Source: an uncultured delta proteobacterium
GTDB lineage: Bacteria; Desulfobacterota; Binatia; UBA9968
Direction: 5' to 3'
DNA: 64,000 bases
NCBI GenBank assembly: GCA_963745035.1
Contig: CAVUVW010000014.1
Span: forward strand, 608,001-672,000
Part shown: positions 6,669-62,020 of the stretch, piece after piece
Numbering within the stretch: position 1 is the stretch's first letter
How the letters are laid out: each line of letters begins with the position of its first letter
Made by a program: the position numbers and the translations under genes
The notes under the pieces: generated by a model
What the model was told of the DNA's origin: nothing
Databases searched by the model: none
Seen by the model: only the letters and a program-made list of their open reading frames with translations

Positions 6669-6688
6669 TGTTGGACTAAGGTCCAATA
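6669..6688 (+). promoter_or_regulatory. Palindromic operator, copy 1 (upstream of frdC)
   Basis: TGTTGGAC-TAAG-GTCCAATA; TG-A-TACGCG with the hexamer 21 nt downstream. Confidence 0.85.
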
Positions 6689-6785
6689 TGCGCCCCAGCG
6701 GCTTCCTGATACGCGTTTAAGAAAACTCATCCCGGGCTACCACGTCCAATACTGAATCGAGCGGCATAGAGATGGAGGAAGAGCC

Positions 6786-7559
6786 ATGAACGACCAAGTC
6801 GATGTCATTGCCGGAACCGGTCTCGACCTCAAGGCGCGAAAGAGTCACTGGCCGGCGCGTTTGGATTTTGCCCAGAGCGCGAGCGGATTGTTCTTGGGCC
6901 TCTTCATGTGGGGCCATATGGCTTTCGTATCGACGATTCTGATCAGCAACGATGCCATGTGGTGGGTGACCAAGATGTTCGAGGGACAGTTTATTTTCGG
7001 CAAAGCTTATCCCGGTATCGTGGCTGCAGTCGTCGCCGTGGTTTCGTTCCTGTTCGTGCTCCATGGCTTGCTCGCCATGAGAAAATTTCCTGCGAACTTT
7101 CAAGAATACAAAGGTTTCGCCAGCCACCGGCAAATGCTGCGCCATGAAGACACCACACTTTGGTGGGTGCAGGCGTGGACCGGCTTCGCGCTCTTCTTTC
7201 TGGCTTCGGTTCATCTCTACCAGATGCTCATGCATCCCGGCGACATCGGCCCTTACGAATCGGCGGAGCGCGTGTGGAGCGGCCGCTGGTGGCCGCTGTA
7301 TCTCGTCTTGTTGTTTGCCGTCGAGCTGCACGGTGGAGTCGGCTTGTATCGCTTGGCGGTAAAGTGGGGCTGGTTCGAAGGCAAAGATCCGAATCGGACG
7401 CGCAAGATGCTCAAGCGGCTCAAGTGGGCGATCACGATTTTCTTTCTCACGCTCGGGCTGCTCACCTTGGCCGCATACATGAAACTCGGCCACGAGCGCC
7501 GCGACCGGTTAGGCGAGCGCTATGTGCCATCCCACGCCGCGCCGGCCCAGCAACGCTAG
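6786..7559 (+). CDS. frdC: Quinol:fumarate reductase cytochrome b subunit (Wolinella-type, 5 TM, diheme)
   Basis: PARLDFAQSASGLFLGLFMWGHM, HGLLAMRKFP, SVHL and VELHGGVGLYRLAVKWGWF motifs. Confidence 0.93.
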   Translation: MNDQVDVIAGTGLDLKARKSHWPARLDFAQSASGLFLGLFMWGHMAFVSTILISNDAMWWVTKMFEGQFIFGKAYPGIVAAVVAVVSFLFVLHGLLAMRKFPANFQEYKGFASHRQMLRHEDTTLWWVQAWTGFALFFLASVHLYQMLMHPGDIGPYESAERVWSGRWWPLYLVLLFAVELHGGVGLYRLAVKWGWFEGKDPNRTRKMLKRLKWAITIFFLTLGLLTLAAYMKLGHERRDRLGERYVPSHAAPAQQR

Positions 7560-7567
7560 CGGGGCCA

Positions 7568-7725
7568 AAATTCGAAGCACGAAACCCGAAATCCGAAACA
7601 ATCTCAAATGATCAAAATACGGAAAATTCTAAACGAGAGGCATTCGGATTCGGTAATTTGGATTTGCCGGTTTTGAAAATTTTGTCTGTCTTTGTTTCGG
7701 ATTTCGATATTCGGATTTCGAATTT
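7568..7725. repeat. Palindromic intergenic element with 34-bp imperfect terminal inverted repeats built from AAATCCG-like heptamers
   Basis: 7568-7601 AAATTCGAAGCACGAAACCCGAAATCCGAAACAA pairs with 7692-7725 TTGTTTCGGATTTCGATATTCGGATTTCGAATTT; AT-rich interior. Confidence 0.8.
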
Positions 7726-7799
7726 GTTTCGCTGGTTGTTGGCAGGAGAAAATTCTTGAAGTGCTTCTGACGAACATTTCAAAAGGAAGAAGTTAAGCC

Positions 7800-9812
7800 A
7801 TGAAAATCATTTACACCGACGTTCTGGTTGTCGGCGGAGGTCTTGCCGGCCTGCGCATCGGCATCGGCGCCAAACGGCGCGGTCATGACGTGATCATTCT
7901 GTCTCTCGTGCCGCCGAAGCGCTCGCATTCCGCCGCGGCACAAGGCGGTATGCAGGCGAGCCTCGGCAACGTCATCAAGGGCGAGGGCGACAACGAAGAC
8001 GTGCACTTCGAAGACACGGTGCGCGGCAGCGACTGGGGCGCCGACCAGGAAGTCGTGCGCATGTTCGTCGACACCGCGCCCAAAGCGGTGCGCGAGCTGG
8101 CGGCTTGGGGTTTACCATGGAGCCGCGTCACCAGAGGCGACCGCGACGTGATCATCAACGGTCAGAAAGTCACGATCACCGAGCGCGATGAAGCCCATGG
8201 ATTGATCGCCCAGCGCGCCTTCGGCGGCACCAACAAGTGGCGCACTTGTTATGTCTCGGACGGCACGGGGCACGCGATGCTGTTTACGATGAGCGACCAA
8301 GCGATCGCTCATCAGATCCCGGTGCACGAGCGCGCCGAAGCGATCGCCTTGATCCATGACGGTGCTCGTTGTTATGGCACCATAGTTCGCAACTTGGTCA
8401 CCGGCGAGTTGGTAGCCTACGTCTCGAAAGCCACCGCGATTACCGGGGGCGGTGCAGGGCGGCTCTATCGCGTGACGACGAATGCGGTGATCTCCGAAGG
8501 TATTCCGACCGCCATCGCGCTGGAGACCGGCGTTGCCACCCTGGGGAACATGGAGGCGGTACAGTTCCATCCGACGCCTGCCTTTCCGGCAGGCATTCTT
8601 CTGACCGAGGGCGCGCGCGGTGACGGCGGCTTGCTGAAAGACGTCGACGGCCACCGTTTCATGCCCGACTATGAGCCGGAGAAAAAGGAGCTCGCCTCCC
8701 GCGACGTGGTTTCACGGCGCATGGAAGAGCACATCGCCAAGGGCAAAGGCGTCAAGTCGCGATTCGGCGACCATCTGTGGCTGGATATCACGCTATTGGG
8801 CGAGCACCACATCAAGCACAACCTGCGTGAGGTTTACGAGATCTGTCATTACTTTCTTGGCGTCGATCCGGTGAAAGACTGGGTGCCGGTGCGGCCGGCA
8901 CAGCACTACACCATGGGCGGCGTGCGCACGAATTATACCGGCGAAAGTCCGACCTTGAAGGGATTATTCTCGGCCGGCGAAGCGGCGTGCTGGGACATGC
9001 ATGGCTTCAACCGGTTGGGCGGTAACTCGGTGGCCGAGACAGTGGCAGCCGGCATGATCGTCGGCGAGTTTATCGCCGACTTCTGCGAGAGGGACAAGGC
9101 CGGGAATATTCCTACCGGCGTGATCGAGGAAGCGCTGCGCCGGGAGCAAGCCAAGATCGACGTATTGATCGACGGCCGCGGCACGGAAAACGCCGCGACG
9201 ATCATGGGCGAGATGCAGACGCTCATGACGAATAAAGTCGGCATTTTTCGTCGCGGCCCAGTGTTGGAGGAGGCGGTGCACGAGTTACAGCAACTCTTAT
9301 TGCGCAGCCGCAACATTGGCCTGCGCTATAAGGCGCGGGGCGCCAATCCTGAGCTGGTGACGGCCTATCGGGTGCAGAAAATGCTCAAGATGGCGCTGTG
9401 CGTCGCCTATGGCGCGCTCCAGCGAACCGAAAGCCGCGGCGCTCACTTCCGCGAGGACTTCCCGCGCCGCAACGACGCCGAGTGGCTGAACCGCACCTTG
9501 GCGACTTGGAAGTCGGAAAGCGACACCCTGCCGTCGCTCGCCTACGAAAAAATCGATGTCATGAAAATGGAATTGCCGCCGGGCTGGCGCGGCTACGGCG
9601 CCAAGGACCACATCGATCATGCCGACACGGCCAGACGCATGGCGGAGGTCGATGCGCTCAAGCAATCGCGAGATGGCGCGGATCGCTTTACGGTACAGGC
9701 GAAGCTGATGCCCTACGAGCATCTGTTGCCGAAGACCCTGCGCGGCAAGAATGAACGGCTTGGCGAAACGATTGCGGACCGTGGAGAGCCTCGCGACCTG
9801 CGAGCAGGATAA
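7800..9812 (+). CDS. frdA: Fumarate reductase flavoprotein subunit
   Basis: GGGLAG FAD-binding loop, [10 protein letters not shown] (covalent FAD His), [37 protein letters not shown]. Confidence 0.96.
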
Positions 9813-9951
9813 AATTTCGGACCCGAGTGAATGCGAGAGCGTTCAGCGTTGAACTAACGTTTCGCAATGCGCAATCGAGACGGATCACCTTGAAGCGGCT
9901 CGAGTCCCCCTTTTTGCGGTATTGTAGCGGGACACGAAAGGAGTATCCGCC

Positions 9952-11350
9952 ATGGCTGAGACTCGGATCGAGAAAGATACTATGGGCGATATTGCGGTCC
10001 CATCGGACCGTTACTGGGGCGCGCAGACACAGCGGTCTCTCAAATATTTTCAGGCGGGGGCGGGACGCGACACGATGCCGAGAGAGCTCATCAAGGCTTT
10101 CGGCATCCTCAAAAAGGCCGCCGCGATGGCCAATGTCGAGCTGGAACTTTTGCCTAAGGAAAAAGGCGATCTGATCATTCAGGTCGCCGACGAGGTCATC
10201 GCGGGCAAGCTCGACGAACATTTTCCGCTGGTCATTTGGCAGACCGGTTCGGGTACCCAGACCAACATGAACGTCAACGAGGTGATCAGCAACCGGGCCA
10301 TCGAAATTTCCGGCGGCGTAATGGGGAGCAAAAAACCCATCCATCCGAACGACGACGTCAACAAAGCGCAAAGCTCCAACGACACCTTTCCCACCGCCAT
10401 GCATATCGCTGCAGTGGAGGTGTTGGGCCGGCTGGTCGAAGCATTGAAGGATTTGAAGAAAACTCTTGAAAACAAGGCGAGCGCTCACGCCAACGTAATC
10501 AAGATCGGCCGCACTCACCTCATGGACGCCACGCCGCTCAGCCTGGGTCAAGAGATTTCGGGTTGGGCGCAGATGGTGGACCACGGATTACAGCGCATCG
10601 CCGCGACTCTGCCTCAACTGTACGAGCTGGCTCTCGGCGGCACGGCGGTTGGAACCGGCCTCAACACACATCCCGAGTTCGCCACCAAAGGGGCGGCAAA
10701 GATCGCATCGCTGACCAACCAACCCTTTGTCAGCGCTCCGAACAAATTCGAAGCTCTGGCCGGCCACGACGCGCTGGTTTTCGCCCATGGGGCGCTCAAA
10801 ACGTTGGCGTGCTCCCTGATGAAGATTGCCAACGACGTGCGCTGGCTCGCCTCGGGTCCGCGGGCGGGCCTGGGGGAAATCAGCATTCCGGAGAACGAGC
10901 CCGGCAGCTCGATCATGCCGGGCAAGGTCAACCCCACGCAGAGCGAGGCACTCACCATGATCTGCGCCCAGGTCTTGGGCAACGACGTGGCTGTCAACAT
11001 CGGCGGAGCCAGCGGCAACTTCGAGCTTAATGTCTTCAAGCCGCTGATGATCCACAACTTCATTCACTCGGCGAAGCTTTTGGCCAAGGGGGTCGAGGGT
11101 TTCACTCGATCATTGTGTCGCCGGCCTCCAGCCCAACGCCGCCCGCATCGACGAGCTGATGAAGAAAAGCTTGATGCTGGTGACCGCGCTCAACCCGCAC
11201 ATCGGTTACGACAACGCGGCCAAGATCGCCAAAAAGGCTCACGCCGACGGCACGACCCTCAAAGAAGCCGCGCTGGCGCTTGGGTTGGTGAAAGCGGAGG
11301 ACTTCGACAAGTGGATCAAGCCCGAAGAAATGATCACTCCGGGAATGTGA
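9952..11350 (+). CDS. fumC: Class II fumarate hydratase (1-bp frameshift near 11105)
   Basis: [20 protein letters not shown] and [13 protein letters not shown]; C-terminus [25 protein letters not shown] lies in the next frame and ends at 11350. Confidence 0.92.
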
Positions 11351-11386
11351 GCCTGGTCTCGCAGTGGTGTGCGTAGGGTGACCGGC

Positions 11387-11457
11387 TTGAACGGAGCGAA
11401 GCGATTGAACGGAGGCGCTGCAGCGCCGGTTGAACGAAGCGCGAAGCGCGATTGAAC
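11387..11457 (+). repeat. Short array of TTGAAC units separated by mini-hairpins
   Basis: TTGAAC at 11387, 11405, 11430 and 11452; spacers contain GC-GAA-GC, GGCGCT-GC-AGCGCC and GCGC-GAA-GCGC. Confidence 0.65.
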
Positions 11458-11484
11458 CTAGGTTTAATTGAAGGAGAGTTGAAA

Positions 11485-12225
11485 ATGGAAAATAAAGCCG
11501 TGCCCCGCAAGCTGAAGATCAGCGTTCTGCGCTTCAATCCGCAGGAGCCGGGAAGCGTGCCGCGCATGCAGACGTACGAGATCGAAGAAGCCGAAGGCAT
11601 GACGCTGTTCATCGCGCTCATGGAGATTCGCGAGAAACAAGATCCATCACTGGAGTTCGACTTCGTCTGCCGCGCCGGCATCTGCGGCAGCTGCGGCATG
11701 TTGATTAACGGCAGTCCGACCCTCGCCTGCCGCATGTTGACGAAAGACTTGGGTACTGAGATCTCGTTGGCGCCGCTGCCGGTTTTCGAGCTGATCGCCG
11801 ATCTCTCGGTCAACACCGGCAAGTGGATGCGCGGCATGAGCGAGCATCTAGAGACCTGGTTGCATATGAAGCAGCCGGAGGTCGATCTGCGCAGGTTCGA
11901 AGAGAAGATGGAGCCGGAGCTTGCCGAAAAAATCTACGAGCTCGATCGCTGCATCGAGTGCGGCTGTTGCGTCGCCGCCTGCGGCACGGCGCGCATGCGC
12001 GAGGATTTCGTCGGCGCAGTGGGACTCAACAAAATCGCGCGCTTCCGTCTCGATCCGCGCGACCGGCGCAACGATGACGATTATTTCGAGTTGATCGGCG
12101 ATGACGACGGCGTTTTCGGCTGCATGTCGCTTATTGCTTGTCACGACGTCTGTCCGAAGGAGCTGCCACTGGCGACTCAAATCGCGTTTCTCAGACGTAA
12201 AATGGTTTCGGTTGGATTGAAATAG
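11485..12225 (+). CDS. frdB: Fumarate reductase iron-sulfur subunit
   Basis: CRAGICGSC...LAC, CIECGCCVAAC and CMSLIACHDVCP cluster motifs; AAGGAG before ATG at 11485. Confidence 0.95.
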   Translation: MENKAVPRKLKISVLRFNPQEPGSVPRMQTYEIEEAEGMTLFIALMEIREKQDPSLEFDFVCRAGICGSCGMLINGSPTLACRMLTKDLGTEISLAPLPVFELIADLSVNTGKWMRGMSEHLETWLHMKQPEVDLRRFEEKMEPELAEKIYELDRCIECGCCVAACGTARMREDFVGAVGLNKIARFRLDPRDRRNDDDYFELIGDDDGVFGCMSLIACHDVCPKELPLATQIAFLRRKMVSVGLK

Positions 12226-12234
12226 CGTGGGAAA

Positions 12235-12253
12235 GCGGGTTGTAACAACCCGC
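12235..12253. other. Perfect short inverted repeat between frdB and the DASS gene (RNA hairpin or binding site)
   Basis: GCGGGTTGT-A-ACAACCCGC; no U-tract. Confidence 0.45.
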
Positions 12254-12275
12254 AGCGGCGGAAAAGGAGGCTCAT

Positions 12276-13787
12276 ATGAGTAAGGTAGAAACCGGGACGG
12301 TAACGCCCGCCGTAAGTGCCAAGAAAGAGAGCTCTAAAAAAATCGGCTGGAAACATTTCGCCCCGATTGTTGTGGCGCTCATTGTTGCGCTCATCCCTGC
12401 GCCGGCGGGGCTGCCACAGTATGCGTGGTACTACTTCGCCATTTTTGCCGGCGTCATCGTCGGTCTGATGTTCGAACCTTTGCCCGGTGGCGCAATCGGC
12501 TTGATCGCCGTGACTTTGGTCGCGCGACTATCCGAGTACGTCCTCTACTCGCCGGAGCAACTCGCCAAGCCCGGTTTTAACGCGCTTAACGCCTCCTTGA
12601 GCTGGGCGCTTTCGGGCTTCTCGAATAGCACGGTTTGGCTGATCTTCGGCGCGTTCATGTTTGCTCTCGGTTATGAAAAGACCGGCCTCGGCCGGCGCAT
12701 CGCGCTGATGCTGGTAAAGGCGATGGGGCGAAAGACACTGACTCTCGGCTACGCGGTAGTGATTGCCGATACGATTCTGGCGCCGTTCACTCCTTCCAGC
12801 ACCGCGCGCAGCGGCGGGACGATCTATCCGGTAATCAAAAATTTGCCGCCCCTCTATGATTCGAACCCCAACGACCCATCCATGCGGCGCATGGGCTCCT
12901 ATCTTATGTGGGTGGCGATCGCGGCGACTTGCATAACCAGCTCAATGTTTCTCACCGCTCTGGCCCCCAACCTGCTCGCCGTCGAGCTGGTGCGAAAGAC
13001 CGCGCAGATCGAGATCGCGTGGATCGACTGGTTTAAATACTTCGCTCCCGTCGGCATCCTTCTGCTCGCGGTGTTGCCGCTGCTGGTCTACTGGATCTAT
13101 CCGCCCCAGGTGAAGGAGGGAGCGGAGGTCCAGAGCTGGGCGGCCAAGGAGCTGGAGAAAATGGGCTCGTTCACGAAGCGAGAGATTATCCTGGCAGTTC
13201 TAGTCCTGATCGCTCTGGTGATGTGGATTTTTCGAGGGGATGAAGTGAACGCCACCACCGCTGCGCTCATCGTCATCTCATTGATGCTGCTGACCAGCGT
13301 GGTAACCTGGGATGACATCGTCAAAAATTCCGCGGCTTGGAACACGTTGGCGTGGTTCGCGACCTTGGTCGCGCTCGCCGACGGCCTGACTCGCGTGGGG
13401 TTCGTGAAGTGGTTTGCGGAGACCGTCGCGAGTCAACTGACCGGCACTCCGCCGGCAATAGCGGTTGCGATGCTGCTGCTGATCAATTTTTTCGGCCACT
13501 ATTTGTTTGCCAGCGTCACGGCCCACGTTACCGCAATGATTCCGGTGCTGCTCGCGGTCGCGTCGACGATTCCCGGAGTCAACATGCATACGCTCGCTCT
13601 CGGTCTCTGCTTGCAGCTCGGCATCATGGGCATCATCACGCCATACGCGAGCGGGCCAAGCCCGGTGTACTACGGCAGCGGGTATCTGCCGGCCGCCGAC
13701 TACTGGCGCCTCGGCGCGATTTTCGGCGTGATCTTCTTCGCCGTATTTCTGGCCATCGGCGTGCCTTGGATGCTGGTCATACGGTAA
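12276..13787 (+). CDS. DASS-family anion permease (TtdT/CitT-like, probable dicarboxylate:succinate antiporter)
   Basis: YEKTGLGRRIAL, PSSTARSGG, FLTALAPN and TPYASGPSPVYYGSGY motifs. Confidence 0.92.
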   Translation: MSKVETGTVTPAVSAKKESSKKIGWKHFAPIVVALIVALIPAPAGLPQYAWYYFAIFAGVIVGLMFEPLPGGAIGLIAVTLVARLSEYVLYSPEQLAKPGFNALNASLSWALSGFSNSTVWLIFGAFMFALGYEKTGLGRRIALMLVKAMGRKTLTLGYAVVIADTILAPFTPSSTARSGGTIYPVIKNLPPLYDSNPNDPSMRRMGSYLMWVAIAATCITSSMFLTALAPNLLAVELVRKTAQIEIAWIDWFKYFAPVGILLLAVLPLLVYWIYPPQVKEGAEVQSWAAKELEKMGSFTKREIILAVLVLIALVMWIFRGDEVNATTAALIVISLMLLTSVVTWDDIVKNSAAWNTLAWFATLVALADGLTRVGFVKWFAETVASQLTGTPPAIAVAMLLLINFFGHYLFASVTAHVTAMIPVLLAVASTIPGVNMHTLALGLCLQLGIMGIITPYASGPSPVYYGSGYLPAADYWRLGAIFGVIFFAVFLAIGVPWMLVIR

Positions 13788-14533: not shown

Positions 14534-15187
14534 ATGGATATCCACGCTTTAAACTACTTGGTGCATTTCTCGAACATCCTGCTGGTTGTATCGTACTCGG
14601 TGCGGGAGATTTTGTGGCTGCGCTGGTTTGCGGTTGCCGCCGCCCTCACCAACATCCCCTACTTCCTCCTTCAGGATACTGTGCTCTGGCCACCGGTTCT
14701 CTGGGCGCTCGTATTCACCGCGATCAATCTCTATCAGATTGTGCGCATCTATCTCGAGCGACGTCCGATCGTGCTATCCCAGGACGAACAGAAGCTTTAC
14801 GATCTAGGGTTCCGTTCGCTTCGTCCGCGCGAGTTCGTTTCACTGTCGCTCGTGGGCGAGTGGAAGAGCGCCGAGGCCGGCGAGAGGATCGTAACCGAAG
14901 GGGAGCCGGTTTCGTGCGTCTGCATCCCGATCACCGGGAGCGCAGACGTACGCAAGCAGGGTGCGAGTATCGGGGCGCTGAGACCGGGGCACATCATCGG
15001 CACCGCGCTGGCCCTCACGGGCGATCCATCACCGGTGGAAGTGACCTTCACCGAACCCGCACGTTACATGCGCTGGTCGCTTCCGAGCCTGCGAAGTTTC
15101 ATGGACAAGCGGCCGGACCTGCGCGCCACGCTGCAAGGTCTCGTGAACCGCGACTTGGCCGGAAAACTGGAACGACTGTTCACGTGA
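14534..15187 (+). CDS. Popeye-domain-like membrane protein (3 TM plus cyclic-nucleotide-binding domain)
   Basis: SYSVREILWLR, INLYQIVRIYLERRPIVL and LYDLGFRSLRPREF followed by a CRP-type beta-barrel (GERIVTEGE...LRPGHIIG). Confidence 0.75.
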   Translation: MDIHALNYLVHFSNILLVVSYSVREILWLRWFAVAAALTNIPYFLLQDTVLWPPVLWALVFTAINLYQIVRIYLERRPIVLSQDEQKLYDLGFRSLRPREFVSLSLVGEWKSAEAGERIVTEGEPVSCVCIPITGSADVRKQGASIGALRPGHIIGTALALTGDPSPVEVTFTEPARYMRWSLPSLRSFMDKRPDLRATLQGLVNRDLAGKLERLFT

Positions 15188-36389: not shown

Positions 36390-36505
36390 GAATGCGGAGT
36401 TCGAAATGATCGTGTTGTCGGCGCCCCTCGCGGCCTTCCCGGCGCCGACCGGTTGCGCGTCCGGTGTCGAAGCAGCCGGAAACTCGACTACGGGAGAACC
36501 TGACC

Positions 36506-38022: not shown

Positions 38023-38050
38023 GGTATATTGGACCAAAGTCCAATATACC
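38023..38050 (+). promoter_or_regulatory. Palindromic operator, copy 2 (12-bp perfect arms)
   Basis: GGTATATTGGAC-CAAA-GTCCAATATACC; TAGAAA 21 nt after GTCCAATA. Confidence 0.85.
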
Positions 38051-40870: not shown

Positions 40871-40890
40871 TATTGGCCTTTGGTCCAATG
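40871..40890 (-). promoter_or_regulatory. Palindromic operator, copy 3 (one core mismatch)
   Basis: Minus strand CATTGGAC-CAAA-GGCCAATA; TG-G-TAGAAC with the hexamer 22 nt downstream. Confidence 0.75.
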
Positions 40891-43361: not shown

Positions 43362-43381
43362 TATTGGACTTTGGTCCAATA
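43362..43381 (-). promoter_or_regulatory. Palindromic operator, copy 4 (faces the PLD gene)
   Basis: Minus strand TATTGGAC-CAAA-GTCCAATA; TG-C-TAAATT with the hexamer 20 nt downstream. Confidence 0.85.
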
Positions 43382-43389
43382 CGGCGGCT

Positions 43390-43409
43390 TGTTGGACCAA
43401 AGTCCAATA
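43390..43409 (+). promoter_or_regulatory. Palindromic operator, copy 5 (faces the glucosidase gene)
   Basis: TGTTGGAC-CAAA-GTCCAATA; TG-A-TAGGCC with the hexamer 21 nt downstream. Confidence 0.85.
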
Positions 43410-43615
43410 GAGCGGAAGTCACCCCGCTGATAGGCCGTATCTGGACCTAGTGATGCTTCGATTGACTGCAACGGAGGCGGAGCTGGTCGGAAAGAACTGT
43501 GCCCTACACGTGCAGCGGCAAAAACAATTCGCAAACCGGCTTCAAACCCTAGCACCAAATCCAAGTCACGATGAAGTCGCGAATCTCAGCGCAGGGTAAG
43601 CTACAGGAGGTAGAA

Positions 43616-50753: not shown

Positions 50754-50773
50754 TATTGGACTAAGGTCTAATA
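50754..50773 (+). promoter_or_regulatory. Palindromic operator, copy 6 (one core mismatch)
   Basis: TATTGGAC-TAAG-GTCTAATA; TATTCT 22 nt downstream. Confidence 0.8.
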
Positions 50774-52182: not shown

Positions 52183-53250
52183 ATGGGTGGAAAAATATTT
52201 TCAACGATAGCTCTGGTAACGCTCGGGTTGAGCGGCTGCGCCAGCATCGGACCGGGTACAGTCGCGCGCGATCGCTTCGATTACATTTCGGCGATTTCCG
52301 ATTCGTGGAAAGCGCAGATGCTTTTCAACCTAGTCAAGCTTCGCTACGGGGATGCGCCGGTGTTTCTCGATGTCGCCTCGGTGATCACCCAGACTGGTGT
52401 CCAAAGCACAGTAGGAGTTTCAGGTTCCTGGTGGCAAAATCCCTCTTTCTCATCCGCGGCTGTCAATGCCCTGGGAACTTATGGAGAAAAGCCCACGGTA
52501 ACTTACCTCCCGATGAGCGGCGAAAAGTTCGCTCGCAGTTTAATGACACCGATCCCACCTGCGGCGATTCTAAGTTTTCTCCAAGCCGGCTATCCGGCGG
52601 ATGTCGTGCTACGACTCACCGTGCATACCATCAATGGCATCCGTAGCCGCTACGGTTACGGTGCACGAATGCGCGAAGCTGATCCGGAGTTTTTTACATT
52701 GGTCGAGAAGCTGCGTAATCTTCAGCAGTCCGGACAAATCGGACTGCGGATCAAAAGGAGCGGCAGCGAGGCGGCGACGGCCATCGTATTTAGCAAGAAG
52801 TTGTCCCCGGCGATAGCGGCGGATCGCGACGACCTACGCCAACTCCTCGGTCTTAGTCCTGAGGCCGATGAATTCGAGGTAGTTTACGGCTCGGTGGCTG
52901 CGAACGACAGGGAGATCGCGGTGCTTACCCGTTCCGTTCTCGAAATCCTTACCGATCTCTCTGCGTATACCGATGTCCCAGCCGCCGACGTCGAACAAAA
53001 GCGCACGTTTCCGTCTCCTGCGCCGGAGATCGTCAAAGGTGCTCCCGTGCCACCGCTTATCCGAATTCTCAACTCCCCAAAAAAACCCGACGACGCGTTT
53101 GTTGCTGTGCCGTACGGTCAAACCTGGTACTGGATCGACGACAAGGACTTCGCCTCCAAGAGGCTTTTTTCTTTTATCATGTTCATCTTCACGCTCACCG
53201 AACCTGGAGACAAGCAAGGCGCGCCGATCATTACGGTTCCCGTCGGATAA
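52183..53250 (+). CDS. Hypothetical lipoprotein
   Basis: LSGC lipobox; NLVKLRYGDAPVFLDV and WYWIDDKD motifs. Confidence 0.8.
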   Translation: MGGKIFSTIALVTLGLSGCASIGPGTVARDRFDYISAISDSWKAQMLFNLVKLRYGDAPVFLDVASVITQTGVQSTVGVSGSWWQNPSFSSAAVNALGTYGEKPTVTYLPMSGEKFARSLMTPIPPAAILSFLQAGYPADVVLRLTVHTINGIRSRYGYGARMREADPEFFTLVEKLRNLQQSGQIGLRIKRSGSEAATAIVFSKKLSPAIAADRDDLRQLLGLSPEADEFEVVYGSVAANDREIAVLTRSVLEILTDLSAYTDVPAADVEQKRTFPSPAPEIVKGAPVPPLIRILNSPKKPDDAFVAVPYGQTWYWIDDKDFASKRLFSFIMFIFTLTEPGDKQGAPIITVPVG

Positions 53251-53357: not shown

Positions 53358-54433
53358 ATGAGCGAACAAGAGAGCGACGTCACCCGCGTCGTTCTGGCGG
53401 TGCTGTTCATCGTCGCTTTGATCGGCTCTTCAGTGTGGATCTTGCGGCCGTTTATCGGCGCCATTGTCTGGGCGGCGACTATCGTGGTCGCCACTTGGCC
53501 CTTAATGATTGTTCTTGGCATGCCGACTGTGGAATAAGCGGTCTTTGCGGTCGCAGTGATGACGCTTTTGCTATTGTGTGTTCTGGTGCTGCCGATAACC
53601 TTTGCCGTGGTTACCGTCGTGTCTCATGTCGATGAAATCGTCGCCTGGGCTGGATCGCTGTCGTCATTGCAAGATTCCTGCACCCCCGGACTGGGTCGCC
53701 AACCTCCCTATGATCGGTGCCAAAGCCGTTGAGTTGTGGCAAAGCACCGCTGCGGCAGGAATTCAAGGATGCCACAATGAAAGCGGCGCCTTACGCGGGC
53801 GGCGTGATCCGCTGGCTTGCCACACAACTGGGTAGCGTAGGTGTGTTGCTTGCAGAACTCTTGTTGACGATTATTCTCGCGGCCGCCATGTACGCCGGCG
53901 GCGAGTCGGCGATGGCACGGCTGCTTCGATTCGGCCGGCGCTTGGCCGGTCGCGGCGGTGAGAACGCAGTACTTCTCGCCGGACAAACCATCCGCGGAGT
54001 CGCTCTGGGTGTCGTGGTAACGGCCATTACCCAAGCGCTTTTCGGCGGTCTCGGTCTCTTCATTGCTGGTGTTCCTTTCGCGAGTCTGCTCACTGCGGCG
54101 ATGTTCCTACTGGCGATCGCGCAGATCGGCGTGGTTCCGATTCTTGGCTCGGCGGTGGTGTGGGTCTACTGGACGGGCGAGTCGGTTTGGGGAACTTTCC
54201 TCCTGATTTGGACCCTCGTTGCCGCACCATGGACAACTTTCTGCGTCCCATTCTGATCCGCAAAGGTGCGGACTTGCCATTGCTCCTGATCTTTGCCGGC
54301 GTCATCGGGGGCTCTGATCGCCTTCGGACTGATCGGCATCTTCGTGGGTCCGGTTGTGCTCGCGGTAGCCGATAAGCTGCTGATGGCGTGGATCGACGGA
54401 GAAGCCAAAGAACAGATTCCCGAGTCCTCCTAG
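53358..54433 (+). CDS. AI-2E family transporter (YdiK-like), several frameshifts
   Basis: WILRPF..IVWAATIVVATWPL, IRGVALGVVVTA, DNFLRPILIRKGADLPLLLIFAGVIGG and FGLIGIFVGPVVLAV pieces in different frames. Confidence 0.8.
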
Positions 54434-54517
54434 CCCGCTTATTTCTGCATCGTAGTGCGCATGGCACCTTTTTGGTTCTCCGCCCTGGGGTTGAGCCATC
54501 GCGGTGCTGCTTCGGCG

Positions 54518-54537
54518 TATTGGACTAAAGTCCAATA
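54518..54537 (+). promoter_or_regulatory. Palindromic operator, copy 7
   Basis: TATTGGAC-TAAA-GTCCAATA; TG-T-TATCAA with the hexamer 22 nt downstream. Confidence 0.85.
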
Positions 54538-54641
54538 TCCGTTGGCCGGTCTGTTCTGTTATCAAAGTCGGCATTGTTCAGGAACTGGCGATTCGGGTCG
54601 GATGAAAGTGAAGTGTTTTGCGAGGAGGAGGAGAAGAAGCC

Positions 54642-55151
54642 ATGCATATAAATAAGGTCTGCCAGTTGGCTGCGGCCGGATGGCTGGTTGCTTTGACTGG
54701 GTTCATCCAGCCCGGTTGGGCTCAGAGTAAATCAGCCCCGGGCGATAAGCCGGCAAGCAATTTGGAAATCATCCACGAGAAGCTTAAGGCGGATAAAAAA
54801 TTGATCGTCGCCAAGTATATGGAATTAACCGAGTCGGAGGCGAAGAAGTTCTGGCCGGTCTTTGAGGAATATCAAAGCGATCTTCAGAAAACCAACGAGC
54901 GTCTGCGGCGTTTGCTCGAAAGCTACGCTGCGGATTACCGGAACAAATCTTTGACGGATGAGAAGGCGAAGAAGCTCCTCGACGAATGGATTGTGATCGA
55001 GCAGGAGGAGGGAAAACGCCGCAGCACGTTCGCGCCGAAGGTGCTGCAAACGTTACCGGCAAAAAAGGCTGCCCGCTACCTGCAGATTGAAAACGAGTAC
55101 CGGACTTTGTTGCGATACGATCTTGCGGAGACGGTGCCGCTGGTCCGTTAG
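54642..55151 (+). CDS. Secreted alpha-helical protein (paralog of 55923-56408)
   Basis: Signal peptide; MELTESEAKKFWP and RYLQIEN motifs. Confidence 0.8.
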   Translation: MHINKVCQLAAAGWLVALTGFIQPGWAQSKSAPGDKPASNLEIIHEKLKADKKLIVAKYMELTESEAKKFWPVFEEYQSDLQKTNERLRRLLESYAADYRNKSLTDEKAKKLLDEWIVIEQEEGKRRSTFAPKVLQTLPAKKAARYLQIENEYRTLLRYDLAETVPLVR

Positions 55152-57870: not shown

Positions 57871-60800
57871 ATGAAATTGCTGCGCCGGTCGATCATCCTT
57901 TCTATCACCATCGGGTTTCTGTTTGCGGTCGGAGCGATTCTCGTTCCGCGCATCATCGACAGCCAGCTGATTCGCGATGCGATCAGGGCCGAATTATCCA
58001 AGCACTTCGACAACCACCTGGTGATCGGCCGAATCGCGGTGGCATGGTTCCCCCATCCGAGAGCGGTAGTCGAGGCTGCGGAACTCTCCTTCGGCGCAAA
58101 CCAGCAAGCCTCGATCCGTTCCCTCGAACTCTATCCGTCGTTTCTTGCTCTCCTCTCGGGTCGGCTGACGCCGGCGCGGGTGGTCTTGATCGAGCCTAAG
58201 CTCAAAATTCACTTACGGGTTGAGCCGGATCAATCGTTCGATCTCGACAGCATCGAGAAGAACATCGCTGCCGCACTCGCAGGACTCACCCGAGACCTCC
58301 GAACATCTCATATCGCCGTCATCGGCGGTTCGGCGGAGCTTGCCATCGACGCGAGACCTCCGGTCATTTTCGAAGATGTCTCGGCTCGAGCTGCTGCTTC
58401 ACCGGAAACATTAGAGTTCGAAATGAGCGCTCGCTCCAGCCTCTGGCAAGCCTTGGCCGTGAAGGGAAAGGTTTCGGCGGAAAGGCTGGCATTCCAACTC
58501 GACATCGCCGTCCAAAGACTGAAGATCAATGAGTCCCTGGCATTTTTCCCTTCCTCCGACTTCGGGTCCACGCCTGGCGGAAACGCGAGCTTTGAATTGG
58601 AGGTTTCCGGCGTGGGATTGCGCCGCGTGAAAGCTGCGCTTGGAAGTATCCCCGAGCCGTTGGTCATCGCGCGGCGCGGCCGTGGCGGTTTCTTTGAAAT
58701 CCAGCAATTAAAAGGCGCGATATCCTACGAAGAAGGCGGGTATGAACTCGACGTAGAGCAACTCGATCTCGCTTCACCGCGGCTCAGCGCATCAGGGAAG
58801 ATCCAATCTAAAGGTGACCGGATATCCGCAAGTATCAAAGCCCATGATCTGGATATCGCCGAGGTTCACCATCTCATACTTGGAATCGCCGATGGGAACG
58901 CGAATGTGGAGAATAGTCTCCGCTATGTTTCCAAGGGAACGATTGCTGATCTCTACATCCAAAGCGCTGGACGTTCGCTCGCCGAGTTAGCTTCCATCAA
59001 GAATATGGTTCTCTCTGGCAAGCTGCGAAATTGCAGTGTGGTGGTCCCTGGCTATGATCTGGAGCTGGAAAACGTCACTGCGAGCGTGCGCGTGGCCGAA
59101 AATCAGTTAAAGGCGGACAGCATAAGCGTAAGTCTCGGCGCCGTCCGCGGCCGCTCCGGCGCGCTCCGGCTCGGTCTGGAAGGGCGGCGAGCGCCCTTTC
59201 ATTTCGATGTCGAGGTTCAAGCCGGTGCACCCGAGCTGCTCGGCGTTTTGCACAAAGCCGCGCGCAGTGATGCCTTTCGAGCCGAGGTACGGAAGCTGCG
59301 TAACGTCGATGGCGTGCTCTCCGGCAGGTTGATCCTCGGCGAGACTCTCGATGCAATTTCCGTTGAGCTCTTGATCTCGGATGCCGACGTCCGTGCCGAA
59401 TACGAGCAGGTTCTGTTTCCCATCGCGATTCGAGATGGCCGGTTGAATTACGGGGGGAACGTTCTTCGCATCGAAGATCTCAGGGGCTCGGTGGGAAATT
59501 CCCGCTTCGATCTCGTTGGCATCACGTTCCATCATGACGGAAATCGCCGTCTCGATATCCAATCCAAGCGGACCTCATTGGATTTGCAGGAAGCGGAGGC
59601 TTTCGTTCGAATTGTTCCAGCTTTGCGGCGACAGTTCCAAAAGCTCAAGTCGGTGCGGGGGAGGGCCGAGTTGGCGGCTTTCACACTGACAGGGCCCTAT
59701 GATGATCCTTCGCAGTGGAGCTTTGCGAGCACGGGCAGTTTGGACCGAGTCGAGCTCCAGCACGACGATCTTCCTGCGCCCCTGACTGTGATCAGCGCGG
59801 GGTTCGACGCAAACCGGCAGCGGGTTCTGTTCTCCAATACGGACGCCACGATGTCGGACGCGAAATTATCTGCCGGCGGAAAAGTCGAATACCCGGCAGA
59901 ACAGCCGGTTCATGCCGAGATCAGCGGGCACGCAACCATTGGCGAACACGTGACCGAACAGCTCAGCCGCTCTGTCCAACTGCCGCAACAGCTACGGTTA
60001 CGCGCGCCGCTGGAGGTCGTTGCCGAGCGTCTCACATGGACCGCGGGCGGTGACACTTCATTCCTCGGCCAGGCTGCGTTGCCGGGCGGAGCGCTCCTGA
60101 AGGTCGATGCCGTGAAGCGGTCGCGGGAGCTCGTTTTGAACGATGTCACACTGGATGATCTCGAAAGACGCGCTCGGGTGACCCTTCACCTTGCCGATGA
60201 TCACTTTCTTTTCTCTTTCAACGGCGAGTTGACACAGGACACTATCGACAGCGTATTTGCCTCTCCGCCGATGCAAGCGGGTTTACTGCGCGGAGACTTC
60301 CAGGTCAGCGCTGTATGGGAAGATCCGATGACGATGTCCGCAACCGGCCAAGTGAGCGGCAGTAATCTATTCGTCCCGTTCGGAGACGAAAAAGCTCTGG
60401 TCGAAGAATTCAGCGTGGCGGCAAGTGGAGACCGCCTGCAGGTCCGATCGGCAGATTTGCTCTGGCGTGACAGTCGATTGCGGATGTCCGGCCAAGTGGG
60501 CATCGGCAAGGAGGTATTGCGCTTAGATTTAGATGCTACGGCGGACCGGCTCCGCCTGGAAGAGTTAAATCGGCTGTTCGACGACGCGAGGGACAAAAGC
60601 GTCCGCAGCGTTGCGCTGCCTCGTGTGGAAGGTAGAATCGGACTCAAGCTAGACAGTCTCGTGGCAGAAAGTTTCACCGTCGATGCCCTACAAATCGACA
60701 CTGCCTTCGCGCGGTCCTCCGTTAGAGCCGAAATCAAACGGGGCGTAGTCTGCGGCATCAACACCACCGGCCGTTTGGACCTCGGCGAGGGCGACATCGA

Positions 60801-61467
60801 TTTCGATCTCCGATTTATGGTCAAAGAGGGTGATCTTGAACCGACCACTGTCTGCCTGACCACTCAGCAAAGCGATGTAAAGGGTACTTATTCTTTAAGC
60901 GCACGGCTTTCCGGAAAGGGCAGCCGGCAGAACTTGCGATCGGCCCTCAAGGGCAATTTCCAACTGACGGCCCGAAAGGGCGAGTTCATCCGGTCCGCCG
61001 GTCTCGATGCGACGTTTGACTATTTGAATGACTCGGGCGACTTTGCGGTGGCGTTCCCGGATCTCAACAAGGAAGCCTTTGCTTATGAACTGCTCGCCGC
61101 AAAGGGAAGCATCGACGGCCAACGCTTGCAAACTGACGAAATTCTCATCCACGCCGCTCCGCTTATGATTGCCGGCCAGGGGACCTTTGATCTGCAGGAG
61201 AAACAGATGGATGCGAAGGGTCTGGTGTCGGTTGTATCGCCCGCCCGCCTGCTTATCAGACGCATTCCGGTGATCGGCGCGATCCTAGGCGGCTCACTCG
61301 TGGGCATCCCGATCCGGGTCAAAGGATCCTTTGATCGACCCGATATCAGTTATCTCTCGCCGGCAGACGTGGGCGCCGAGCTGGTGAATATTCCCTTGAG
61401 ACTTCTCGGAATGCCAATCGATGCGATCAAGGTATTCATCCCGAGCGGCACAAACGGCGACCCATAG
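57871..61467 (+). CDS. AsmA/YhdP-like large envelope protein
   Basis: 1198 aa; N-terminal TM anchor; beta-strand-rich; C-terminal IPVIGAILGG...VKGSFDRPDI AsmA_2-type end. Confidence 0.8.
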   Translation: MKLLRRSIILSITIGFLFAVGAILVPRIIDSQLIRDAIRAELSKHFDNHLVIGRIAVAWFPHPRAVVEAAELSFGANQQASIRSLELYPSFLALLSGRLTPARVVLIEPKLKIHLRVEPDQSFDLDSIEKNIAAALAGLTRDLRTSHIAVIGGSAELAIDARPPVIFEDVSARAAASPETLEFEMSARSSLWQALAVKGKVSAERLAFQLDIAVQRLKINESLAFFPSSDFGSTPGGNASFELEVSGVGLRRVKAALGSIPEPLVIARRGRGGFFEIQQLKGAISYEEGGYELDVEQLDLASPRLSASGKIQSKGDRISASIKAHDLDIAEVHHLILGIADGNANVENSLRYVSKGTIADLYIQSAGRSLAELASIKNMVLSGKLRNCSVVVPGYDLELENVTASVRVAENQLKADSISVSLGAVRGRSGALRLGLEGRRAPFHFDVEVQAGAPELLGVLHKAARSDAFRAEVRKLRNVDGVLSGRLILGETLDAISVELLISDADVRAEYEQVLFPIAIRDGRLNYGGNVLRIEDLRGSVGNSRFDLVGITFHHDGNRRLDIQSKRTSLDLQEAEAFVRIVPALRRQFQKLKSVRGRAELAAFTLTGPYDDPSQWSFASTGSLDRVELQHDDLPAPLTVISAGFDANRQRVLFSNTDATMSDAKLSAGGKVEYPAEQPVHAEISGHATIGEHVTEQLSRSVQLPQQLRLRAPLEVVAERLTWTAGGDTSFLGQAALPGGALLKVDAVKRSRELVLNDVTLDDLERRARVTLHLADDHFLFSFNGELTQDTIDSVFASPPMQAGLLRGDFQVSAVWEDPMTMSATGQVSGSNLFVPFGDEKALVEEFSVAASGDRLQVRSADLLWRDSRLRMSGQVGIGKEVLRLDLDATADRLRLEELNRLFDDARDKSVRSVALPRVEGRIGLKLDSLVAESFTVDALQIDTAFARSSVRAEIKRGVVCGINTTGRLDLGEGDIDFDLRFMVKEGDLEPTTVCLTTQQSDVKGTYSLSARLSGKGSRQNLRSALKGNFQLTARKGEFIRSAGLDATFDYLNDSGDFAVAFPDLNKEAFAYELLAAKGSIDGQRLQTDEILIHAAPLMIAGQGTFDLQEKQMDAKGLVSVVSPARLLIRRIPVIGAILGGSLVGIPIRVKGSFDRPDISYLSPADVGAELVNIPLRLLGMPIDAIKVFIPSGTNGDP

Positions 61468-61586
61468 ATTCTTCGACGGTCACGTTCCTAGGTGCAACAT
61501 CGAAAGTTAACGCACCGGAGCCACGCAAAGGCTATGTTGCACATTTTCAAAATAAGTGCCGAGCAGATTAGCGGAGGGAGGCGCTC

Positions 61587-61988
61587 ATGGACCGACACTT
61601 TACTCTAAAAATCATGGCGGTGTTGGCGGTCGCCCAAGGAATCGCCGGGATCCTGCGGGCATTTAATTGGATGCAAATCGGCGTCAATCTTTTTGGCCAA
61701 GGAATTTTGCTCCTGCCGCTCGTCGGTGCGGTGGCAGTCTTGCGCGGCCTTTTTATCTCTACCGTGGCGCTGTTTTACCTATTGTTTGCGGTCGGCGCGC
61801 TGCTCGGAAAACGCTGGTCTCGATGGCTCGGCTTAACTGCGGCAATCATCAACCTGCTGCTTGTCGCGAGCGTGCTCGTGCAGGGGGCAAATCTTGGAGA
61901 AGCGCTCGCTTGGTCGGTCATACCGGCGGTTCTCGTGATCTACCTGTTTTCAAAAGCCGGGGGGAAAGCCATCGACGCCGCATCATAG
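61587..61988 (+). CDS. Small four-TM membrane protein
   Basis: GGAGG RBS; hydrophobic 133-aa ORF. Confidence 0.7.
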   Translation: MDRHFTLKIMAVLAVAQGIAGILRAFNWMQIGVNLFGQGILLLPLVGAVAVLRGLFISTVALFYLLFAVGALLGKRWSRWLGLTAAIINLLLVASVLVQGANLGEALAWSVIPAVLVIYLFSKAGGKAIDAAS

Positions 61989-62000
61989 GGTGCCGGCTCG

Positions 62001-62020
62001 TGTTAGACCAACGTCCAATA
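62001..62020 (+). promoter_or_regulatory. Palindromic operator, copy 8 (one core mismatch)
   Basis: TGTTAGAC-CAAC-GTCCAATA; TAGTTT 21 nt downstream. Confidence 0.75.

Follow-up and report, generated by a model that had tools for sequence, protein, structure and literature searches.

An oriented palindromic box and its candidate FixJ-type regulator in a 160 kb gene island

In the FixL/FixJ systems of rhizobia and Caulobacter, a sensor kinase with PAS, HisKA and HATPase domains acts with a REC+GerE response regulator, and classical FixJ has few targets and acts via FixK. The palindrome of the aromatic-degradation regulators StyR and TodT consists of 6 bases, N4 and 6 bases ending ..AC/GT.., the same architecture as the box described below. 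In Mycobacterium tuberculosis, the NarL-family regulator DosR/DevR is paired with the GAF-domain kinases DosS/DosT, and its USP-rich, hypoxia-induced regulon is scattered round the chromosome rather than gathered in one island. The DosR box consensus string appears in PMC2275270 and PMC2703886, and the base contacts reported for DevR are Lys179, Lys182 and Asn183 (PMC4082495). An island arrangement is described for the low-oxygen-activated (lxa) locus of Burkholderia cenocepacia, one contiguous run of 50 genes that includes USPs, transporters and two-component systems, carries a motif at 17 intergenic points and is required for anoxic survival; the motif, TGA-N6-TCA, is of the Anr/FNR type (PMC3721108), and hence a CRP-family regulator is expected there. 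[quoted passage not shown]

The DNA analysed here is a stretch of 64,000 nucleotides (the window), which is also contained in DNA runs from soil, rhizosphere and winery metagenomes. It holds repeated copies of a box, TATTGGAC-YAAR-GTCCAATA, that was not found in the literature searched.

The island to which the window belongs is similar to FixL/FixJ in its kinase architecture, its heme-PAS-like domain and its REC+GerE regulator. However, the kinase is much larger than FixL and has a periplasmic domain, the recognition helix of the regulator contains EKT.K where FixJ of S. meliloti and B. japonicum has PRT.E, and the described FixJ sites (TAAGTAATTTCCCTTA, GTAGTTTCCC and GTAMGTAG; PMC4999443) are unrelated to the island box. 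In contrast to the few targets of classical FixJ, about 24 promoters here bear the regulator's own presumed box, and no fixK-like intermediary was recognised among the genes annotated in this analysis. The StyR/TodT helix reads EVT.K, and the StyR/TodT half-site sequence and gene set are unlike those of the island. Compared to lxa, our island is ∼3 times larger and has a GerE-type box.

The first-pass annotation saw in the box the same core as in the DosR box, and indeed GGAC-YWWR-GTCC is common to both. A NarL-family regulator, a kinase with a heme domain (putative in the island), a 20-bp palindrome (core GGAC-TWWA-GTCC in DosR) and the presence of USP genes are further points of likeness. 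Seven of ten half-site positions agree between the DosR box TTSGGGACTWWAGTCCCSAA and the island box (T1, G5, G6, A7, C8, spacer Y/T and W), whereas positions 2–4 are ATT in the island and TSG in DosR, so that the outer half-site is TATT versus TTSG. The label DosR-like does not fit the proteins. Among PDB entries, the regulator matches StyR best over its full length (5e-59), then FixJ (2e-43), compared to 2e-9 for DevR (3c3w), and the kinase combines PAS and HisKA domains with no GAF domain.

The box core, GGACYAARGTCC, satisfies the EL222 consensus at 12/12 positions, with the outer TATT/AATA lying outside that consensus, and the reverse complement of the EL222 C120 operator has TGGACTAAAG in common with box 7 of the window. 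The recognition helices are also alike (SEKTVKMHRGLVMEKL in EL222 against VEKTIKVHRARVMEKM in the island regulator). Thus, the box is related to a specificity already described, and the earlier statement that it could not be assigned to a described regulator needs revision. Since the island regulator is not a LOV protein and is of the phosphorylated-receiver type, what it has in common with EL222 would be specificity rather than membership of the LOV-HTH family.

The box in the window and in the genome

TTGGAC-N4-GTCCAA occurs perfectly at window positions 6671, 38029, 43364, 43392 and 54520 and with one mismatch at 40873, 50756 and 62003, exactly as first listed. In 100 dinucleotide-preserving shuffles, the mean number of matches was 0.09 and the maximum 1, with 0/100 reaching 8. 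The outer TA..TA of the 20-mer, too, is largely retained. Genes were called in this analysis from ORFs and codon usage, independently of any annotation. By these calls, seven of the eight sites lie between genes, as had been claimed for all of them; at 54520, the site overlaps a low-scoring call on the minus strand (54302-54574, score 11.1), which is likely to be spurious.

Box 1 (6669..6688, plus strand; perfect core, spacer TAAG) lies 100 bases upstream of a fumarate reductase/succinate dehydrogenase operon and has a -10-like element on its AA side. This candidate target operon (6786..13787, plus strand) encodes, by Pfam, an Sdh/Frd cytochrome b (6786-7559), the flavoprotein (7800-9812), an aspartase/fumarase-class lyase (9952-11376), an Fe-S subunit (11452-12225) and a DASS dicarboxylate transporter (12276-13787). 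Box 2 (38027..38046, plus; perfect, spacer CAAA) is the top-scoring site of the genome, at 38.1 bits, and precedes a 195-aa ORF (38359-38946) with no Pfam or NCBIfam match. The statement that the copies stand upstream of gene starts required a correction at 40873. Box 3 (40871..40890; one mismatch) faces the minus strand, with the next minus-strand start (40482), that of a DUF2541-like ORF (40075-40482), 391 bases away.

Boxes 4 (43362..43381, minus) and 5 (43390..43409, plus), both perfect, form a divergent back-to-back pair with their spacers pointing outward. Box 4 is 77 bases upstream of a PLD/cardiolipin-synthase-like gene (41737-43287, minus), which is followed by a DUF502 gene (40997-41644, minus). 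Box 5 is 164 bases upstream of a GH63/MGH1-like glycosidase gene (43571-46372), and downstream on the same strand are an alpha-amylase-family gene (47429-48910), an EAL gene (48986-49789) and a tandem USP gene (49800-50639). Box 6 (50754..50773, plus; one mismatch) precedes two uncharacterised ORFs (51025-52089, 52183-53250). Box 7 (54518..54537, plus; perfect, spacer TAAA) is 83 bases upstream of an uncharacterised ORF (54618-55151), with which a plus-strand run of Ysc84-like, SBP_bac_3 and YhdP/AsmA-like (57871-61467) genes begins. Box 8 (62001..62020, plus; one mismatch), the weakest at 20.4 bits, is 58 bases upstream of a gene for an Lnb_N-domain protein (62076-63134).

The whole genome contains 20 perfect copies, 18 of them between 510,409 and 662,520 on C14, the contig of the window, with one on C13 and one, with an atypical spacer, on C5. 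We built a weight matrix from these copies and defined strong sites as those scoring ≥20 bits. There are 24 such sites, 23 on C14 (510,409-670,003) and one on C13, and the next-best score anywhere in the genome is 15.5. Thus 23 of the 24 strong sites lie on one contig in a segment of 160 kb, which makes up 2.2% of the 7.4 Mb genome. The regulon, first put at 55 kb, would accordingly be an island of ∼160 kb of which the window is only the right third. Gene orientation in the island is nearly uniform. One interval in the window (6671-38029) spans 31 kb with a single box, and other long box-free stretches occur elsewhere in the island, for which reason only genes directly downstream of boxes are regarded as candidate targets.

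Spacer polarity and promoter geometry

Once oriented, the spacer reads Y-A-A-R at 24/24 strong sites, the central step being AA/TT at every one. On the AA side, [GC]nTA is found at +37..40 (±1) in 22 of the 24 sites, compared to 1/24 on the mirrored side, and at 20 of the 23 C14 sites the next gene start in the same direction is within 500 bases. No TTGACA-like hexamer was seen 17 bases upstream of the -10-like element at these sites. With that element ∼37 bases downstream on the AA side, the box would be centred near -43.5 of promoters that have no -35 element. Such a position and the fixed distance to the -10 element would match class II activator-dependent promoters, where the operator is centred at -41.5 to -43.5 over a missing -35 element.

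Beyond the box and the -10 region, information content in the flanks is mostly <0.3 bit per column, apart from one column of 0.71 (position -22), and so there is no larger repeat. A mobile repeat (REP or MITE) was rejected because similarity does not extend into the flanks.

Candidate regulator and its linkage to the box

The genome has 12 GerE matches, three of which are in or at the island: one full REC+GerE protein, one HTH-only ORF and one frameshifted remnant. The full protein (C14:519146-519871, 88 kb left of the window; L001:14146-14871) has Pfam matches to Response_reg (2.7e-26) and GerE (9.9e-21). Immediately before its gene is that of a FixL-like sensor kinase of 1259 aa (C14:515370-519149). 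Their best NCBIfam models are FixJ and FixL, respectively, at scores below the curated equivalog cut-offs (215.5 versus 255 bits for NF006900; 422 bits over residues 866-1246 versus 850 bits for NF041777). At its N-terminus the kinase carries an ABC_sub_bind-like (periplasmic binding-protein-like) domain, and it also contains several PAS domains, HisKA and HATPase. Its PAS domain at 757-878 aligns with the heme PAS domains of DosP and FixL (E 1e-13 to 1e-16), and in one alignment it has His and Arg at the positions of DosP His77 and Arg97, which we take to be the proximal His and distal Arg of heme-PAS oxygen sensing, and Ala at the Met95 equivalent.

Of 24 genomes of the genus, 12 encode an ortholog of the regulator (E ≤ 1e-30), each of them together with the box. 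The box is found in 18/24 genomes, and the six box-free genomes are all without the ortholog. Boxes also occur in six ortholog-free genomes at this threshold (G001, G006, G011, G013, G016 and G022). One of these, G006, is 99% complete and has three boxes; in another, G011, with 13 boxes, the 424 bases past the box of the REC gene contain no regulator. At 10 of 11 regulator loci in the genus, the regulator gene is followed by the box and then the single-REC gene, and in five relatives boxes again cluster on the regulator-bearing contig.

We then considered 80 homologue loci from outside the genus. Where the recognition helix reads xEKT[IV]K.HR, the GGAC-YWWR-GTCC core (≤1 mismatch) was present at 9/13 loci, compared to 2/67 for other helices (Fisher P = 1.5e-7, with kin among the loci not independent). 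At four out-of-genus loci (L030, L031, L032 and L098), a single REC gene again lies behind the box.

Gene order, co-occurrence, the match between helix and box across phyla and agreement with the EL222 consensus suggest that the likely binder of the box is the island-encoded, FixJ/StyR-like REC+GerE regulator. One caveat here is that this pairing is judged throughout from co-location and co-occurrence, a pattern also to be expected of genes and boxes inherited together as a cassette. The earlier proposal of one NarL/LuxR-type activator controlling the island finds a candidate in the same island, outside the window, and has to be narrowed to the box-proximal genes as its targets.

Proposed mechanism, alternatives and meaning

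We consider it probable that the box is the operator of the island FixJ-type regulator, which would activate island promoters under low oxygen with class II geometry; binding by this regulator, activation and the low-oxygen signal are the parts of the explanation that we infer. A dimer of the phosphorylated regulator would bind the palindrome centred near -43.5 and recruit RNA polymerase to promoters that have a -10 element ([GC]nTA...) and no -35 element. The central AA/TT step, directed to the -10 element and the gene, is not palindromic; it makes the palindrome polar and would encode promoter direction. About 24 such promoters would be packed into the 160 kb island. Their targets would include fumarate reductase, a selenocysteine formate dehydrogenase, dicarboxylate transporters, USPs, porins, Mla-type lipid transport, phospholipases, cardiolipin synthase, glycosidases and many uncharacterised genes. 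One box lies between the regulator gene and the single-domain receiver gene, which makes self-feedback of the system probable. Such control of a single-domain receiver gene would resemble the FixT feedback of Caulobacter.

The gene content (fumarate reductase, formate dehydrogenase, USP and PPK2) suits low-oxygen life. Against the proposal stands the poor conservation of the candidate targets from one species to another. In five relatives, 18 loci have homologues of four window genes that lie next to boxes; within 1.5 kb flanks, a box of ≥20 bits was present at three of the 18, a weak one (15.3 bits) at one and none at 14, two loci being cut by a contig end upstream.

The same regulator and box might instead respond to a signal other than oxygen, such as another heme ligand (NO or CO), the redox state or a solute sensed in the periplasm by the binding-protein-like domain, or the regulator might repress; we regard this as unlikely, though deserving of attention. 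Given the periplasmic binding-protein-like domain, oxygen need not be the signal; the heme-PAS look-alike is accompanied by at least three more PAS domains, the heme assignment comes from one alignment, and FixJ repression is reported in R. palustris (PMC13327599). However, the top PDB matches of that PAS domain are all heme-PAS oxygen sensors, with the His and Arg equivalents kept, and the candidate targets have typical anaerobic functions. A box near -43.5 of promoters without a -35 element has the geometry of an activator site, and EL222 acts as an activator in E. coli when positioned over a -35 element (PMC5001607).

That another transcription factor binds the box seems improbable. The CRP/FNR-family candidate considered, a cNMP-binding protein of 215 aa from the island (C14:578905-579552), is of CRP-like size, its gene is divergent from two boxes and 198 bases from the box at 579750, and its N-terminus shows weak likeness to Dnr (E 0.002). 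CRP/FNR boxes likewise have G and A at -5 and -4 from the dyad, and the low-oxygen lxa island uses an Anr/FNR-type motif (PMC3721108). Against this, no HTH domain was detected in the protein, and across phyla the box accompanies the GerE cassette, in which the regulator is the sole recognised DNA-binding protein among the annotated genes (kinase, regulator and single REC). An FNR/FixK/Anr box is ruled out by the TTGGAC half-site, which departs from TTGAT-N4-ATCAA as noted at the outset, together with the presence of the cNMP-binding protein in 2/24 genus genomes versus 18/24 for the box.

Barely credible is the idea that the palindromes are RNA or DNA hairpins (REP-like elements, transcript-stabilising stem-loops or terminators) or a mobile promoter cassette: as RNA the 24-mers form 9–10 bp hairpins of -10.2 to -12.9 kcal/mol and several boxes lie between co-directional genes, but the sequence itself is conserved across phyla beyond pairing, four of five one-mismatch sites break a pair uncompensated (the fifth gives G-U), no T-run follows the stems, Rfam has no match in the window, the flanks hold no larger repeat, and the one-sided -10-like element is a property of promoters.

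Returning to activation by the FixJ-type regulator, we give roughly even chances to a broader proposition, that the system is an undescribed FixL/FixJ-type subfamily. Its cassette (kinase, regulator, box and single receiver) would be patchily spread over several phyla, and its EL222/DosR-like EKT.K helix would read TATTGGAC-YAAR-GTCCAATA, with the AA/TT dyad step giving direction. Unlike classical FixLJ, the system would work in a single tier. In this genus, it would serve dozens of -35-less promoters in a self-contained anaerobic-survival island of 100–160 kb.

These data provide a testable regulator–operator pair for a soil and rhizosphere genus known chiefly from metagenome bins. They point to routes by which its members may survive anoxia, namely formate and fumarate respiration, glycogen and phosphoketolase metabolism, envelope remodelling and USPs. 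So strict a polarity in a near-perfect palindrome is unusual, and the case is clean enough to serve for asking how directional promoters arise from a symmetric dimer. The data also suggest that FixJ-family regulators with an EKT.K helix may have the same DNA code as the optogenetic tool EL222. If so, regulons would be predictable for this helix class in other phyla that bear the cassette, and the island would be a possible source of natural, orthogonal promoter parts.

Occurrence, polarity and context of the box

A pattern search for TTGGAC-N4-GTCCAA, allowing at most one mismatch, recovered in place all eight sites that the first-pass annotation had listed in the window. In dinucleotide-preserving shuffles of the window the pattern occurred 0.09 times on average, and 0 of 100 shuffles reached eight. 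In the flanks, conservation extends to a 20-mer, TATTGGAC-YAAR-GTCCAATA. The sites had also been called intergenic, and all eight do lie between called genes, except that the one at 54520 is overlapped by a minus-strand ORF, which is weak and probably spurious; gene positions here come from our own ORF and codon-usage calls, not from annotation.

The genome (7.43 Mb, 28 contigs, 92.6% complete) holds 20 perfect copies, 18 of which fall on one contig, C14, between 510,409 and 662,520; the window corresponds to C14:608001–672000. A weight matrix, circular for the perfect copies because it was built from them, gave 24 sites of at least 20 bits: 23 on C14 (510,409–670,003) and one at C13:352,883, which precedes an OmpA-domain gene. 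No other site in the genome scored above 15.5. The five additional one-mismatch sites recovered by the matrix all lie within the same 160 kb of C14, a stretch that makes up 2.2% of the genome and in which nearly all genes are on the plus strand. The box pattern is highly non-random and larger in extent than the 55 kb first proposed, since the cluster spans 160 kb and the window covers one third of it. No paper was found for the box strings or their degenerate forms in literature searched largely outside subscription journals and supplements. In a draw of 200 genomes at the phylum level, four had a single 18-mer match, at most one or two of them with a YWWR-like spacer.

The central two bases are AA on one strand at 24 of 24 sites, and never AT or TA. 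When each site is oriented by this AA step alone, a –10-like element ([GC]nTA) lies at +37 to +40 (±1), counting from the first T, in 22 of the 24 sites, compared to 1 of 24 for the mirrored side of the box. Counting the –10 hexamer as –12 to –7, the dyad falls near –43.5. At the position 17 bases ahead of the –10 element, where a –35-like hexamer would be expected, there is none, as the right half-site fills the space. In the direction set by the AA step, the next start codon comes within 500 bases at 20 of the 23 C14 sites, and one outlier is due to an over-long ORF call (a DUF3604 gene with its Tat signal at residues 166–186). At the divergent pair 43364/43392 of the window, the spacers face outward, to PLD-like and GH63-like genes.

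Outside the box and the –10 region, most flank columns hold less than 0.3 bit of information; a single isolated column reaches 0.71. As the flanks are nearly uninformative, the boxes are not part of a larger repeat, such as the mobile one that the first-pass annotation had named as an outcome against its reading. Box RNA would fold into stable hairpins (–10 to –13 kcal/mol), and the boxes might act at that level. We rank this reading low, because it is sequence and not pairing that is conserved, single mismatches are uncompensated in four of five cases, no T-run follows the stems, and the –10 element is one-sided.

A candidate regulator and its linkage to the box

There are 12 GerE-domain matches in the genome, three of them in or at the island (the ∼160 kb of C14 with nearly all boxes). 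One of these, 241 aa long, is a complete response regulator (REC plus GerE) at C14:519146–519871. The start of its gene overlaps the end of the gene for a kinase of 1259 aa, which carries an ABC_sub_bind-like region at its N terminus along with several PAS domains, HisKA and HATPase. In the PDB the regulator matches StyR (5e-59) and B. japonicum FixJ (2e-43) best, and DevR far more weakly (2e-9). The best NCBIfam models are FixJ for the regulator (215 bits versus a cut-off of 255) and FixL for the kinase (422 versus 850); these scores do not reach the curated thresholds, and hence neither protein is an equivalog. Kinase residues 757–878 match heme PAS domains, namely those of DosP and FixL. 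At the positions of DosP His77 and Arg97 the kinase has His and Arg, whose roles we take to be those familiar from the EcDOS and FixL literature, and at that of Met95 it has Ala. Bins labelled Acidobacteriota, 'delta proteobacterium' and others supplied the nearest named homologues of the regulator.

The original proposal of a NarL/LuxR-type activator governing a low-oxygen regulon is thus borne out in part: a REC plus GerE regulator is encoded in the island, but it is not DosR-like. The candidate is not a DosR orthologue; it is FixJ-like, with a recognition helix resembling that of EL222. The DosR consensus quoted with the proposal corresponds to the published one, as far as the available text goes, and DosR reads bases through Lys179, Lys182 and Asn183 (PMC4082495, in the portion available). 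FixJ sites described in the accessible sections of two papers differ from the box (PMC4999443; PMC13327599).

Several other genes in the island deserve mention. A 97-aa ORF at L001:5082–5375 (C14:510082–510375) consists of a GerE HTH only, with an EKT-type helix (MEKTIKVDR) and without a receiver domain; it sits at the island's left margin, immediately ahead of box 510409 and overlapping a DUF983 gene at that gene's end, and may be the remnant of a second regulator–box cassette or a stand-alone HTH able to compete for boxes. Window 3100–3453 contains a frameshifted LuxR-type HTH gene remnant (GerE 31.7 bits, two reading frames) with the helix SPATVKRH, which falls outside the EKT type. L002:6566–8641 encodes a second sensor kinase (MASE1-PAS-HisKA). 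A cNMP-binding protein flanked by two boxes was considered as the regulator and rejected, as it is present in only 2 of 24 genus genomes. It is of CRP-like size (215 aa; L005:13905–14552, C14:578905–579552, minus strand) with no detectable HTH, NCBIfam gives it a single, weak match (1.9e-6), to the cNMP-binding part of family 2B encapsulin shells, and one of its two boxes (579750) is without a –10-like element. A single-domain POPDC/cNMP protein (window 14534–15187) does not have the architecture of a transcription factor.

The gene for the FixJ-like regulator is followed, after 68 bases, by a box, and a single-domain receiver gene begins 42 bases beyond the box. This order of regulator, box and receiver gene recurs at 10 of the 11 regulator loci of genus relatives, and the eleventh (L020) has the variant CTGGAC..GTCCAG. 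We surveyed 24 genomes of the genus, scoring the box as a perfect 16-mer and the regulator ortholog at E ≤ 1e-30. The box was found in 18 genomes and the ortholog in 12; all 12 ortholog-containing genomes have the box, and the six box-less genomes are all without the ortholog. The other six have the box and no ortholog. Five of these are fragmented and 65–93% complete; G006 (99% complete, 3 boxes) and G011 (13 boxes) count against the pairing of box and regulator. Looser searches gave nothing convincing in G006, G011, G013 and G022, and in G016 only a contig-end fragment with the helix TERTIKAHR. Boxes also cluster on the contig of the regulator gene in G003, G004, G014, G018 and G019; in G003, all eight fall within C12:263–360 kb, with the regulator gene at 360 kb. 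An unpublished genome, G005, is counted among the 18 box-positive and 12 regulator-positive genomes, and its locus L015 is one of the 10–11 in-genus cassette loci; the conclusions are unchanged without it.

Recognition helix and box across phyla

We sorted 80 homologue loci from outside the genus, representing many phyla, by recognition helix. Of the loci with the helix xEKT[IV]K.HR, 9 of 13 contained a GGAC-YWWR-GTCC core (at most one mismatch), compared to 2 of 67 for all other helices (EIT, EST, ENT, EVT etc., including Bradyrhizobium FixJ loci), both of these with poor flanks (Fisher P = 1.5e-7, the relatives not being independent). Bins labelled Hylemonella, Pyrinomonadaceae, Gammaproteobacteria and 'delta proteobacterium' are among the box-positive EKT loci. 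At four box-positive out-of-genus loci the box is once more followed by a gene for a lone receiver, and in most of the positives a PAS kinase is encoded immediately upstream. The same pattern would also be expected from a cassette inherited as a unit. In two regulator homologues, L037 and L110 (G016:C479), the helix is TERT.KAHR, with Arg replacing Lys; the box adjacent to L037 reads TTGAAC-CAAA-GTACAA, which may reflect covariation of helix and half-site.

The HTH helix of the candidate is very like that of EL222, for which a measured consensus, RGNCYWWRGNCY, is given in the available part of PMC10521638, a second-hand source for the primary EL222 work. The box core satisfies this consensus at 12 of 12 positions, and the C120 operator of EL222, reversed, has TGGACTAAAG in common with box 7 (PMC10521638, same portion). 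EL222 acts as a transcriptional activator in E. coli when positioned over a –35 element (PMC5001607, accessible text). By analogy, the EL222 data are an independent experimental anchor for the predicted regulator–box pairing. From sequence, we infer that the FixJ-like protein would bind the box, activate transcription from it and respond to an oxygen signal.

Genes behind the boxes and variation between species

Box-neighbour genes were assigned by Pfam and NCBIfam. Since 31 kb follow box 1 without a second box, only box-proximal genes are candidate targets. In the window, boxes precede a fumarate reductase/succinate dehydrogenase operon, which includes genes for an aspartase/fumarase-class lyase and DASS transporters, and a PLD/cardiolipin-synthase-like gene. 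One box stands before a GH63-like glycosidase gene, after which come amylase-family, EAL and tandem-USP genes; others precede an Lnb_N gene, a gene run whose last member is YhdP/AsmA-like, and several ORFs without a family. Left of the window, boxes precede an Mla-like ABC system, patatin phospholipases, OprB porins, and sulfatase, DUF3604 and DUF3300/DUF2950 genes. A periplasmic molybdopterin oxidoreductase also has a box ahead of it, and behind it come NrfD- and NapC/NirT-type genes. The oxidoreductase (L007:8364–11435, C14:603364–606435) lies just left of the window, 190 bases downstream of box 603159, and carries a Tat-like leader (RRQFLKG). An in-frame TGA (L007:8976–8978; VEHQARL-TGA-HSSTVAGL) divides it in ORF calls, and given this context it is very likely the alpha subunit of a selenocysteine formate dehydrogenase.

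PPK2, glycogen phosphorylase, phosphoketolase and G6PD genes have no box of their own. The last three form a run at window 31107–37882 (glycogen phosphorylase, XFP phosphoketolase, glucose-6-phosphate dehydrogenase), which suggests that the island's repertoire includes substrate-level ATP formation fed by glycogen. The island also encodes two PPK2 polyphosphate kinases (window 24936–25847 and L003:13851–14666) and a PIN/RHH toxin–antitoxin pair (L003:5946–6682). MlaA is divided into two frames (L004:2599–4507, minus strand), the AcrB-family gene is a 347-aa fragment only (L006:14815–15858), and one OprB porin is a C-terminal half only (L005:2868–3599); these are either pseudogenes or assembly errors, with bin contamination at 5.8%. 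Between the frd cytochrome b and flavoprotein genes, window 7560–7799 shows an AT-rich inverted arrangement of TTCGGATTTCG and its complement. This word has 35 and 29 copies on the two strands of the genome, versus ∼1.3 expected per strand, and many metatranscriptome contigs match window 7691–7725 only, with unlike flanks; it looks like a dispersed intergenic repeat of soil bacteria. Neither Rfam nor a tRNA scan gave a match in the window. We compared four RNA runs (Logan contigs) with window 6400–9900. Their contigs are short pieces that overlie portions of the frd genes, in a few cases with no differences, and none spans window 6634–6750; as they show neither transcript starts nor expression level, we draw no claim from them.

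To gauge target conservation, four products of genes next to window boxes (Frd cytochrome b, the GH63 N-terminus, orf177 and orf354) were searched in five relatives. Only 3 of 18 homologous loci had a box of at least 20 bits within the fetched 1.5 kb flanks; one carried a weak, half-conserved site, 14 lacked a box, and at two a contig end cuts off the upstream side. Since most orthologues have no box nearby, we do not claim conserved regulon membership. The orf177 orthologues lie ∼4 kb downstream of the regulator–box–receiver unit on the same strand, and operon context may substitute there for a box of their own.

The system is predicted to work like the low-oxygen switches DosR and FixLJ. Its layout is similar to that of the lxa island of B. 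cenocepacia, a 50-gene low-oxygen locus with one motif, of the Anr type (TGA-N6-TCA), at 17 intergenic points (PMC3721108, in the text available). The putative regulon extends over 160 kb and differs from one species to another, and the gene content of the island fits anaerobic respiration and survival.
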